A DNA stretch of 4,533 nucleotides from a virus (IMGVR_UViG_2778261182_000006), one strand, 5' to 3'; shown: positions 1,382-4,396, counted from the first letter of the stretch. A program made the numbers and translations. Notes: generated by a model not told the origin, from the letters alone.

Positions 1382-1807
1382 TTAGTGCATCACCACGGCA
1401 TTTCCCGCCGGACCACCACGATTCATCTGGTTGAAACCAGCGATCGCCACTGCGACAAAATCATCAGCGTCTCTCACCAGTCGTTCCCGCGTCGCCACCA
1501 GCTCCCGAAAATAGGCTGAACTGTGACTGCGCATTCGGGCCACCAGCAGAGGTGGCATTGCTTTTTCGATCGCTGGTAACAGTGCCTGAATTTTTTTAAC
1601 CGCATCAGGAGTGTCTTTCTCTACCCAGCGGAAAATTTTCTGAGTATTGCGAGCCAGGGCTTCCGGATAGCTGTCGTCATACAGTTCCGGGAATGTCATA
1701 CCCAGCTCAAAATAAGCCCGGGTTATTTCAGCTGCCGGAACTTTTTCACCGTCCGGATGCGCCCAGGCACTCATCGCCATGCGGATGTGTTCATGCTTGA
1801 TTTTCAT
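1382..1807 (-). CDS. ydaT: YdaT-like protein (CII-analogue regulator of Rac-type prophages; historically annotated as toxin YdaT)
   Basis: 141-aa ORF from the track beginning MKIKHEHIRMAMSAWAHPDGEKVP, which matches my recollection of E. coli YdaT in length (about 140 aa) and N-terminus. It lies immediately downstream of the cro-like gene, overlapping it by 17 nt (1791-1807). Confidence 0.75.
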   Translation of the reverse strand: MKIKHEHIRMAMSAWAHPDGEKVPAAEITRAYFELGMTFPELYDDSYPEALARNTQKIFRWVEKDTPDAVKKIQALLPAIEKAMPPLLVARMRSHSSAYFRELVATRERLVRDADDFVAVAIAGFNQMNRGGPAGNAVVMH

Positions 1808-2063
1808 GAATCAACTCCGGTGCATTTGATGTGTTAACCTTACATCCAACAGGTAAACCGTCGGTTGGATTAGGATAAATATCAGGGCGAATTTCATGCG
1901 GGGTAACTTCCCACTTCATTAGCTGGCATAACGGAATTACCTGCTTTGGGGGAACGCCAAAGCTAAACCATTGCCAAACAGTCTGTTGAGCGACCCCCAT
2001 ATAACGACCTATTTCAGCTTGAGTGTATTTCTGCCTAATTTTTTCGCGAGTGCTATCTAGCAT
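1791..2063 (-). CDS. ydaS: Cro-like HTH regulator, YdaS family
   Basis: 90-aa ORF with an HTH (YTQAEIGRYMGVAQQTVWQW) and a YdaS-type C-terminal segment (PPKQVIPLCQLMKWEVTPHEIRPD). AGGAGG (revcomp of 2069-2074) lies 5 nt upstream of the ATG. It is divergent from the repressor-like gene at 2173. Confidence 0.8.
   Translation of the reverse strand: MLDSTREKIRQKYTQAEIGRYMGVAQQTVWQWFSFGVPPKQVIPLCQLMKWEVTPHEIRPDIYPNPTDGLPVGCKVNTSNAPELIHENQA
1797..1814. promoter_or_regulatory. Perfect inverted repeat TTGATT-N6-AATCAA centred on the ydaT start codon; candidate binding site for the CII-like YdaT or another HTH regulator
   Basis: Seen directly: TTGATT (1797-1802), spacer ttcatg, AATCAA (1809-1814). 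Its position at the cro-like/cII-like junction mirrors where lambda CII acts at pRE. Function is inferred. Confidence 0.35.
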
Positions 2064-2172
2064 TTTGCCCTCCTCTAAAAAACTATAAGCAAAGCCTACA
2101 ATAAAAAATTGTACACGATCAACAGTTTTTTATTGTGATGCTTTTAACAGTATTTACCTGTAAAATTGAATA
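2064..2172. promoter_or_regulatory. Divergent promoter/operator region (OR-like) between the cro-like and repressor-like genes
   Basis: 109-bp AT-rich intergenic region between divergent start codons. Contains the inverted repeat TACAAT-aaaaa-ATTGTA (2097-2113) and AACAGTTTTTTATTGT (2121-2136), a 15/16 match to a half-site of the palindrome at 3136-3174. A -10-like TAAAAT (2161-2166) ends 7 nt before the ATG at 2173, suggesting a leaderless repressor mRNA. Minus-strand -10 candidates are TATAGT (revcomp of 2082-2087) and TACAAT (revcomp of 2108-2113); their -35 elements are poor. Confidence 0.6.
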
Positions 2173-2574
2173 ATGATGAACGCCCTAGAAGTATCTATGT
2201 ACAGAATCAGCAAGCTTCTTCAGGAAACTGGATGGAGCCAGGCTGAGCTTGCCCGTAGAATTGGTGTGACACAACAAACTGTTCAACAATGGGCCAGCGG
2301 TAAGGCCACCCCTAAAGCCTCAAGTTTGGATAAACTGGTTGAGGTTACAGGGCATCCATTGCATTGGTTTTTATTGCCTCCTGAAGAAGGGGAGCAAATT
2401 TTCACCCCTGACACGATGAAAATTGGTCCTCGCCAACGCGAACTGCTCCAGGCTTTTAGTGCGTTTCCTGAGGAAGACCAAGAAAAAATGCTTCAAGAAA
2501 TCAAAGACAAGAAAAAATCAATGGAAGAAACCATTGCCCGGTGGTTGGCGGCGCAAAAAAGCCGCCGGGCGTAA
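2173..2574 (+). CDS. paaR2: XRE-family HTH transcriptional regulator, CI/DicA-like; regulator of the three-component TA operon and likely prophage immunity repressor
   Basis: 133-aa ORF with an HTH (SQAELARRIGVTQQTVQQWASG) and a C-terminal region typical of the dimerisation part of DicA-type repressors. No Shine-Dalgarno upstream. First gene of an operon with the antitoxin and ParE genes. Confidence 0.8.
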   Translation: MMNALEVSMYRISKLLQETGWSQAELARRIGVTQQTVQQWASGKATPKASSLDKLVEVTGHPLHWFLLPPEEGEQIFTPDTMKIGPRQRELLQAFSAFPEEDQEKMLQEIKDKKKSMEETIARWLAAQKSRRA

Positions 2575-3099: not shown

Positions 3100-3125
3100 A
3101 CTCCCTCATTCGAGGGAGTTTTTTT
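3100..3125 (+). terminator. Rho-independent terminator ending the regulator-antitoxin-toxin operon
   Basis: Seen directly: stem ACTCCCTC (3100-3107), loop ATTC (3108-3111), stem GAGGGAGT (3112-3119), overlapping a run of 7 T (3119-3125), 17 nt after the parE stop. Confidence 0.75.
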
Positions 3126-3135
3126 GCTCAAAGCC

Positions 3136-3179
3136 ACAATTAAAAACTGTTGACACAAAACAGTTTTTAATTGTAGATT
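3136..3179 (+). promoter_or_regulatory. pL/dicBp-like early promoter embedded in a 39-bp perfect palindromic operator
   Basis: Seen directly: ACAATTAAAAACTGTT (3136-3151) and its exact reverse complement AACAGTTTTTAATTGT (3159-3174), separated by GACACAA. Consensus -35 TTGACA at 3150-3155; -10 candidate TAGATT at 3174-3179 (18-bp spacer). The half-site recurs at 2121-2136 in the OR-like region. Confidence 0.55.
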
Positions 3180-3362: not shown

Positions 3363-3719
3363 GTGGGCGAAGTCAAACATCAGAATGGAAGGCATCCCGG
3401 GATCGGCAAAGAAGCAGCAATGGCGCTTTATATTGACATCAGCGCCATTGCCGGACAGGTAAGAGTTATTAGAGCGGTAACTAAGCAGTATGCGCCTTTA
3501 CTTCAGAAAGTCTCTGGTGAGTGCACCGAAGATATTGTCAACGATTTCGTCATCGAACTGCGAGGACTCATCTTCAGTTACAAGGTGACCACAATTTTTG
3601 CAGATGGCTCCCGCGAAACTGTCAGAGCCCTGCGGCTTAAAGGATGTGTCAAAGACTTCGCCACCACATTCTGGGCAAGAAAACTTGATTGTATTCATAA
3701 CCAATTTCCTCTCGAGTAA
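3363..3719 (+). CDS. Alternative hypothetical protein (118 aa, GTG start), mutually exclusive with the antisense zinc-ribbon ORF
   Basis: Plus-strand ORF in the same direction as the early operon; GAGGA (3351-3355) lies 7 nt upstream of the GTG. It uses only AGA/AGG arginine codons in its unique 5' part and has no recognisable motif. Its openness over 3498-3698 may be an antisense in-register artefact of GNC-rich coding on the other strand. Confidence 0.3.
   Translation: MGEVKHQNGRHPGIGKEAAMALYIDISAIAGQVRVIRAVTKQYAPLLQKVSGECTEDIVNDFVIELRGLIFSYKVTTIFADGSRETVRALRLKGCVKDFATTFWARKLDCIHNQFPLE
3498..3698 (-). CDS. Small 4-Cys zinc-ribbon protein (about 66 aa), unknown function
   Basis: Minus-strand ORF (track 3498-3704, TTG start; more likely ATG at 3696-3698) with C-P-E-C ... 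C-K-N-C spaced about 21 residues apart, a classic zinc-ribbon signature, plus an acidic C-terminus. GAGAGG (revcomp of 3708-3713) lies about 9 nt upstream of the ATG. It conflicts with the plus-strand ORF 3363-3719; at most one is real. Confidence 0.45.
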   Translation of the reverse strand: MNTIKFSCPECGGEVFDTSFKPQGSDSFAGAICKNCGHLVTEDESSQFDDEIVDNIFGALTRDFLK

Positions 3720-3790: not shown

Positions 3791-4006
3791 ATGCAGAAAC
3801 GAGAACCCGTCATCATCGCGCCAGACTATACCGATGATGAAATTTACGAATGGATGTGCGGGAAGATACGCGCCATTAATGACCTGAAGCAGGCTGCTGA
3901 CTATAAAGAGCGCCTCTCTAAAGAACTGGCGTCAGCGGAGCAGGATATTACCACTCTGGCAAAAAGCGCGGCTTTAAACGTTTCGCGAGTGACTGAAAAC
4001 CACTGA
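3791..4006 (+). CDS. Hypothetical small protein (71 aa) of the early rightward operon
   Basis: Strong SD AAGGAG (3780-3785) 5 nt before the ATG. Plausible, non-repetitive protein (MQKREPVIIAPDYTDDEIYEWMCGKIRAINDLKQAADYKERLSKELASAEQDITTLAK...). Occupies the position of the small ydfA/B/C-type genes upstream of DicF in Qin-type prophages. Confidence 0.6.
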   Translation: MQKREPVIIAPDYTDDEIYEWMCGKIRAINDLKQAADYKERLSKELASAEQDITTLAKSAALNVSRVTENH

Positions 4007-4009
4007 CTG

Positions 4010-4396
4010 ATGAGGTTGATGATGGAATTTAAAGATTTACCAATGCCATTCCAGGAAATGGCAGCGAATATAGTTCGTTCCCAACTGGCGACTCTTGACC
4101 TGAGTACCGTAGAAAAAGAAACCATCGATAATATATCCGGTAACGTGCGTCGCGCCTTTATCGGGTTGTACGAAGAGAAGCAACTCTCTGATAACCAGGA
4201 TTTACATGAAAAATACTTCCTGGAATTAATGGACATCATTGATAAGGGATTTGGCTTGTTAATGAAACAGAAAGGGATTCGAATGAACCCCCTTGAAAAT
4301 TACTTCGTAACAAGAAGCATTAATTCCTGTGATTTAAAGCATCCCGCCACAGACGGGAGTGTTACAGTTAGCCATAAGATTTCGATTAATCATTAA
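4010..4396 (+). CDS. Hypothetical protein (128 aa by track; true start may be ATG 4019 or 4022)
   Basis: ORF begins 3 nt after the upstream stop. GAGG (4012-4015) would serve an ATG at 4022 (6-nt spacing). No recognisable motif. Followed by the DicF-like element. Confidence 0.6.
   Translation: MRLMMEFKDLPMPFQEMAANIVRSQLATLDLSTVEKETIDNISGNVRRAFIGLYEEKQLSDNQDLHEKYFLELMDIIDKGFGLLMKQKGIRMNPLENYFVTRSINSCDLKHPATDGSVTVSHKISINH

Follow-up and report, generated by a model that had tools for sequence, protein, structure and literature searches.

The locus analysed here raises one question: is the perfect palindrome that lies over the ydaT start codon, at the junction with a ydaS-like gene, an operator for the YdaT protein itself, and if so, which promoter does it serve? 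The window was the whole stretch of viral DNA under study (4,533 nt, IMGVR_UViG_2778261182_000006), and all positions were counted from its first letter.

Genes of the window and the palindrome at ydaT

The window contains a lambdoid prophage immunity region of the CP-933P type, and the positions, strands and supporting matches of its features are specified in Table 1. YdaT_toxin was the sole Pfam match of the 141-aa YdaT protein, and its top matches in the PDB were 3c4r (E 1e-87) and 8bt1 (CP-933P YdaT, E 6e-79). The YdaT protein of CP-933P forms a tetramer and carries POU-like helix-turn-helix (HTH) domains (PMC9986795); its toxicity was not seen in CP-933P, where YdaS and YdaT are regulators (PMC8630535). 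This literature argues against the reading, taken from the Pfam names, of YdaT as a toxin that is neutralised by YdaS. By the protein families assigned, the real toxin-antitoxin pair of the window is PaaA/ParE.

Table 1. Features of the immunity region in the window, with the evidence for each.
Feature	Position	Strand	Evidence
ydaT, CII-analogue activator (POU-like HTH, tetramerisation helix), 141 aa	1382..1807	-	Pfam PF06254 YdaT_toxin, E 4e-10
ydaS-like Cro analogue, 90 aa	1791..2063	-	Pfam PF15943 YdaS_toxin, E 8e-10
YdaT operator (OM / 'YdaT-box')	1797..1814		TTGATTTTCATGAATCAA; half-sites 1797-1802, 1809-1814
Predicted extended -10, TGtTAACCT	1832..1840 (hexamer 1835-1840)	+	Comparison; hexamer 20 nt past the box
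Predicted transcription start	1847 (+/- 2 nt)	+	Inferred from -10 hexamer position
OR-like operator unit, ydaS/repressor gap	2098..2136		15-nt inverted repeat ACAATAAAAAATTGT / ACAGTTTTTTATTGT; repeat search
CI-analogue repressor, PaaR-like, 133 aa	2173..2574	+	Pfam HTH_3, E 4.5e-13; Phage_CI_repr, E 1e-5
PaaA-type antitoxin, 63 aa	2605..2796	+	Pfam PF21217 PaaA2, E 3e-22
ParE-family toxin, 95 aa	2796..3083	+	Pfam PF05016 ParE_toxin, E 4e-16

The repressor gene occupies the position of paaR2 in CP-933P, and comparison with the published primer indicated a different allele (the protein starts MMNALEV... in the window versus MQKKEIR... in CP-933P). At its 5' end (2173-2200), the repressor ORF begins with ATGATG, has no obvious upstream Shine-Dalgarno (SD) sequence and contains a second in-frame ATG (Met9) just before the HTH. 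Given that the paaR2 mRNA of CP-933P is leaderless (PMC8630535), it is uncertain where translation of the window repressor starts and what leader it has. Directly after the parE stop codon, a hairpin resembling an intrinsic terminator (ACTCCCTCATTCGAGGGAGT followed by TTTTTTT; 3100-3125, plus strand) would end the repressor-paaA-parE transcript.

The OR-like unit of Table 1 is one of two copies of a 39-nt unit (77% identical), each made of the 15-nt inverted repeat ACAATnAAAAAnTGT. The other copy (3136-3174) lies past parE, around a TTGACA-18-TAGATT promoter (3150-3179, plus strand), in an OL/PL-like arrangement. The two units are probably operators for the PaaR-like repressor and the YdaS of the window allele, analogous to those of PaaR2/YdaS in CP-933P (PMC8630535).

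Three further parts of the window were annotated. The 315-aa protein encoded 3' of ydaT matched HTH_36 (Pfam), and in related loci it is annotated as a helix-turn-helix domain protein, a hypothetical protein or a phage replisome organizer. The 68-aa protein encoded at 3498-3704 (minus strand) has two CxxC pairs, and none of its Pfam matches reached the threshold (DUF5795 was best, at 23.5 bits versus a cut-off of 27); a putative zinc-binding protein of the ECs_2282 family, annotated in CP-933P at about the same place, may be similar to it. In the region 3791-4396 (plus strand), two small ORFs of 71 and 128 aa had no match in the Pfam search, and ydfC is annotated nearby in CP-933P.

The palindrome at 1797-1814 was read as TTGATT, TTCATG (1803-1808) and AATCAA, an inverted repeat whose 6-bp arms match perfectly around a 6-bp spacer. 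The ydaT ATG (complement of 1805-1807) falls within the spacer, so that the site straddles the start codon, as the initial annotation had described. That annotation had also placed the palindrome inside a 17-nt ydaS/ydaT overlap: the overlap is real (1791-1807), but only 1797-1807 (11 of the 18 nt) lies within it and 7 nt extend beyond. The left half-site corresponds to the ydaT codons AAA-ATC-AAG. The right half-site is ydaS-only sequence and lies within the SD-to-ATG spacer of ydaT; both half-sites are encoded by the last codons of the ydaS-like gene (..E L I H E N Q A, stop).

The motif TTGATTN6AATCAA had a single match in the window, even when up to 2 mismatches were tolerated, and the broader form (T/A)TGATT-N6-AATCAA was matched at 12/12 positions, versus 9/12 for the runner-up in the whole window. 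The exact motif is rare: 4e-4 occurrences are expected per window (analytical), and 2000 shuffles produced it 3 times. When any sequence was allowed in the arms, perfect 6-N6-6 inverted repeats were more frequent: the window holds 5, one of which is the terminator stem 3' of parE, versus 1.28 +/- 1.15 expected (2000 dinucleotide shuffles). The palindromic shape by itself is therefore weak evidence for function. Secondary sites comparable to the weak flanking sites of CP-933P were searched around the box, and only 7-8/12 matches were obtained, all overlapping the main site and at chance level.

Published YdaT operators and the distribution of the box

In CP-933P, YdaT protects from DNase I a 25-bp zone with 5'-TTGATTN6AATCAA-3', the operator OM at the ydaS/ydaT border; binding was also demonstrated by EMSA, ITC and native MS, with sub-micromolar affinity, weak sites (OL and OR) flank OM and are occupied at higher YdaT concentration, and the tetramer is able to hold two duplexes (PMC9986795). 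The initial annotation had given a motif of this form as a reported YdaT recognition sequence, and this was correct. The PRE933P fragment is silent without YdaT and gives YdaT-dependent GFP expression toward the repressor operon, and YdaT was concluded to be a CII analogue (Jurenas et al. 2021, PMC8630535). In Rac, the YdaT footprint covers the ydaT ATG and has the sequence ATGATTCATGAAAATCAA (the "YdaT-box"), and mutation of this box abolishes a 29-fold YdaT-dependent activation of reverse transcription toward racR; the Rac and CP-933P proteins cross-react on, and cross-activate, each other's boxes (NAR 2025, PMC11879457). Additional sites of Rac YdaT were reported in the racR-ydaS intergenic region over PydaST and in the host rcsA promoter (PMC11879457).

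For comparison with the window, the CP-933P locus (L014) was retrieved via the published paaR2 primer sequence. Its OM is identical to the window site over all 18 bp, spacer included, and has the same place over the ydaT ATG; the same register was found in the Rac-type loci. The CP-933P YdaT is 84% identical to the window protein, with an identical recognition helix (ARNTQKIFRW). The ydaT side of the junction is the same, and in both loci a CI-like repressor is followed by the same paaA/parE-type toxin-antitoxin pair. To the right of the box, however, the sequences are unrelated: by the junction alignment and the published primer sequences, ydaS is a different allele, and the ydaS/ydaT overlap is 17 nt in the window versus 4 nt in CP-933P. 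The whole window was not found in any one complete E. coli genome at a coverage of at least 80% (best 75% coverage, 94% identity), and a scan of GTDB yielded 8 loci only (E. albertii, Shigella and others). A second O157:H7 prophage locus (L001) has the allele type of the window, with 92.7% identity over the junction. On these alignments, the window is a mosaic relative of CP-933P and not CP-933P itself. The Rac box (ATGATT-N6-AATCAA) differs by 1 nt from that of the window and is likewise an inverted repeat with a 6-nt spacer holding the ydaT ATG, and when YdaT binds it, reverse transcription in the direction of the repressor gene is activated (PMC11879457), as is proposed for the window; the Rac YdaT is only ~32-34% identical to the window YdaT.

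All the sequence-level marks of the YdaT operator family were present at the window site: the box, its position at the junction and a cognate YdaT with the recognition helix. The site itself is a further allele of the published operator and is already known, the feature having been shown for identical DNA. By analogy with these homologues, binding of the box by the YdaT of the window allele and activation toward the repressor are supported. The initial annotation had read the palindrome as a YdaT site in a CII-like switch, with a YdaT-dependent promoter reading rightward through ydaS to the repressor; such a promoter matches the reporters of CP-933P (PMC8630535) and Rac (PMC11879457), and the reading as a whole is supported by analogy, and is in the literature already.

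A 221-bp query around the box gave matches in 3316 of 5426 E. coli genomes (at most 7 places per genome, median 1). The box variants among 108 close relatives were TTGATT..AATCAA (48 loci), CTGATT..AATCAA (21 loci), ..AATCAT (16 loci), ..AATCCC (11 loci) and ..AATCAC (6 loci): the core TGATT-N6-AATCA was kept in most of them, and the outermost base pair of each half-site was variable. The box was retained at the ydaT start beside at least 17 unrelated cro-type partners. A further 165 loci were collected from three other YdaT branches (ZF40-type, Serratia type and Klebsiella type), whose query proteins share 31-43% identity with the window YdaT, and a perfect 10/10 core was found in 161 of them (search from -150 to +30 of the gene start). 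In the ZF40-type phages and a Stenotrophomonas phage, the box is located between cro and cII, at a distance of 35-72 nt from the ATG on its upstream side, and because it is intergenic there, its conservation is not a coding artefact. The recognition-helix residues N54, Q56, I58, R60 and W61 were invariant in 10 diverse homologues, which, at the level of protein comparison, fits the half-site shared across homologues.

A predicted promoter next to the box and the competing readings

The published reports differ in where the activated promoter is placed. For CP-933P, Prolic-Kalinsek et al. 2023 (PMC9986795) described OM as lying "downstream from" PRE933P and stated that it "contains an alternative transcription start". 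In Rac, activation was assigned to PracR4, ~190 bp from the box, which is a BPROM/EcoCyc prediction made without start-site mapping (PMC11879457). No mapping of a PRE start site was found in the CP-933P and Rac studies (PMC9986795, PMC8630535, PMC11879457).

For the analysis of promoter spacing, 274 loci were pooled and the sequence past the box (antisense to ydaT) was clustered into 52 types, which are not fully independent in evolution. The pattern nAnnnT was present at an offset of 20 or 21 nt from the box in 51 of the 52 types (background 5.6% per position), and the lone type without it is a singleton locus that looks rearranged. The stricter TAnnnT was present at the same offsets in 44/52 types (background 1.3% per position), and the mean score of a -10 position weight matrix (PWM) was +2.2 bits at offset 20, versus -3.4 +/- 0.7 at other offsets. 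A TG at -15/-14 was found in 19/52 types (background 6.8%). The hexamers of TG-extended promoters scored lower than those of the others (mean 4.0 versus 4.6 bits), which is the expected trend only (Mann-Whitney p = 0.13).

The window hexamer (TAACCT) is weak, with 3/6 matches, and depends on its TG extension; within the ydaS type of the window, the TG and the T1, A2 and T6 of the -10 were invariant, and positions 3 and 5 varied, altering the YdaS protein. Because a hexamer at -12 to -7 puts the start at about 1847, the box centre (1805.5) would lie at -41.5 (-42.5 for the offset-21 types), which is the geometry of a class II activator. The right half-site would overlap the -35 region, which has no consensus. 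Class II sigma-70 promoters are known with CRP or FNR at -41.5 and with lambda CI at OR2/PRM. The likeness of the window to them is one of geometry, with the start predicted from the -10 hexamer: a dimer-symmetric site 41.5-42.5 bp upstream, a -10 that is often TG-extended and no -35 consensus.

The published fragments were examined for the same architecture. The PRE933P primers, mapped onto CP-933P, delimit a fragment of 120 bp, of which the first 18 bp precede the box; the YdaT-dependent promoter of CP-933P must therefore lie at the box or at most 84 bp past it; TACAAT is found there 21 nt past the box, versus the offset of 20 in the window. In Rac, TATGAT is present at offset 20 past the YdaT-box, within the published reporter region. 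The PracR4 hexamers TTGACG and TACGCT were located 189-221 nt past the box in the Rac-type loci (L028/L019), where they are 21 nt apart, an unfavourable spacing, and the PracR4 pattern with a 15-19 nt spacer had no match in the Rac sequence. A scan for the sigma-70 consensus on the plus strand of window positions 1600-2300 returned no promoter, including none near the box or within ydaS, and the scan of the whole window likewise gave none near the box; no terminator-like site was found on the plus strand between the box and the repressor gene. The consensus scan is uninformative on a PRE-like promoter, because an activator-dependent promoter without a -35 cannot pass its filter, but its empty result counts against a PracR4-like promoter inside the window ydaS.

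The circuit proposed for the window is as follows. A rightward, PR-type ydaS-ydaT transcript would give YdaT, and the two GATT half-sites would be bound by POU-like HTH domains of the YdaT tetramer, paired as a dimer. Binding would turn on an otherwise silent promoter reading the plus strand, whose transcript would run antisense through ydaS into the repressor-paaA-parE operon, as from PRE under lambda CII. This promoter would be box-proximal, with the predicted extended -10 of Table 1, no usable -35 and a predicted start at about 1847; with its box at -41.5 over the -35 region, YdaT would be an activator of class II and stand in for the absent -35 contact. The binding and activation steps are taken from the homologous CP-933P and Rac systems (PMC9986795, PMC8630535, PMC11879457).

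We consider it likely that the palindrome is the operator (OM/YdaT-box) of the adjacent YdaT and that it activates a box-proximal, class II plus-strand promoter toward the repressor. The extension of this arrangement to the whole family (phages of Escherichia, Klebsiella, Serratia, Pectobacterium, Stenotrophomonas and Actinobacillus), in which the box would be the -41.5/-42.5 site of a class II-type PRE with its -10 at 20-21 nt, irrespective of the cro gene present, is favoured on balance by the comparison of loci. The box-proximal model is consistent with all the reported data, and conflicts with the interpretations that invoke PracR4 or place OM downstream.

In lambda, the tetrameric CII is encoded after cro and turns on a promoter that is otherwise silent, opposes cro in direction and supplies the repressor gene with transcript (PMC8630535, PMC9986795). 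The YdaT box has the same place in the circuit, at a cro/cII junction and overlapping the start of the activator gene, and the arrangement in the window is lambda-PRE-like because of the gene order, the strands and the path from the box to the repressor gene, on which no terminator-like site was found. The protein families are unrelated, however: YdaT belongs to Pfam YdaT_toxin and has a POU-like fold (PMC9986795). The sites differ as well, since lambda CII recognises a direct repeat (TTGC-N6-TTGC) that flanks and straddles the -35 hexamer, whereas the window has the inverted repeat TTGATT/AATCAA, predicted at -41.5, on the upstream edge of the -35 region. The YdaT box is thus lambda CII/PRE-like in circuit logic and is not a member of that family.

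Other explanations of the palindrome were weighed against these data. That it is a by-product of coding (the conserved YdaT MKIK N-terminus together with the C-terminal ydaS codons), with no function at the DNA level, has next to no probability: the half-sites do coincide with ydaT AAA-ATC-AAG and the last ydaS codons, and palindromes of the general 6-N6-6 form are no rarity there, but the same core box occurs in the non-coding cro-cII DNA of the ZF40-type and Stenotrophomonas phages, the right half-site is retained beside many unrelated cro genes in different frames, and the identical sequence was directly footprinted (PMC9986795). A function in RNA, by which a hairpin in the ydaS-ydaT mRNA would sequester the ydaT start for translational control or coupling, would accord with an AUG in the loop and the SD-to-AUG spacer in a possible stem. 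The predicted stem reaches only -1.8 kcal/mol (z-score -0.44 versus shuffles), its 46-nt context -4.3 kcal/mol (z +0.64), and the ZF40-type phages carry the box well upstream of the start codon; the hairpin is very improbable and was rejected as too weak.

Two other readings accept YdaT binding but assign it a different effect. YdaT at the box could mainly repress ydaT or block its transcription as a roadblock, since the DNA of the box spans both the ATG of ydaT and its ribosome-binding region, the protein was termed a 'repressor' in PMC9986795, and Rac YdaT also binds over PydaST. Such autoregulation is improbable as the main role: Rac ydaT-lacZ activity remained nearly constant across a YdaT gradient with either the wild-type or the mutant box (PMC11879457), activation was observed in both published reporters (PMC8630535, PMC11879457), and a pure roadblock leaves the strictly spaced -10 on the opposite strand unexplained. 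Activation of a distant promoter deep in ydaS, like that assigned to PracR4 ~190 bp away, is the stated model for Rac (PMC11879457), unlike the box-proximal reading of the window, and a tetramer on two duplexes (PMC9986795) would permit looping. We regard it as unlikely, because no sigma-70-like plus-strand promoter was found in 1600-2300, the 120-bp CP-933P fragment suffices, PracR4 is a software prediction with its hexamers 21 nt apart in the Rac sequence, and the Rac reporter also held the box-proximal TATGAT. The data do not require an effect over such a distance.

Mosaic boundary, possible cross-talk and significance

Many alignments of the 221-bp query end at window positions 1812-1818, directly past the box, and a few cover 1784-1818 only. 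In some genomes, this 35-bp island (1784-1818) alone is shared, and the ydaT and cro-like genes on its two sides are otherwise different. On the pattern of these alignments, the box marks a mosaic boundary that recurs where the ydaT module meets cro-type modules, which are interchangeable; the operator appears to serve also as the joint at which cro/repressor modules are exchanged next to ydaT by recombination. O157:H7 strains were found to carry a CP-933P locus and a window-like locus with an identical box (L001 and L014 come from two different strains).

What is added to the literature is only the box-N20/21-(-10) architecture across the family, together with the class II reading that it implies. 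If true, the published model of Rac PracR4 (at 190 bp) and the placing of OM at or downstream of the CP-933P start would be corrected. The fixed spacing between box and -10 gives a concrete, testable architecture for non-CII activators of lysogeny establishment, and predicts start sites in CP-933P, Rac and the window; the case also indicates that a known regulatory site is recoverable from sequence alone. Because the YdaT proteins of Rac and CP-933P cross-activate (PMC11879457), cross-talk between prophages may occur through the box. If so, the YdaT of one prophage could fire the establishment promoters of coexisting box-bearing prophages, and such cross-activation of repressor expression, and here also of the ParE toxin-antitoxin pair, would bear on prophage stability in pathogenic E. 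coli.
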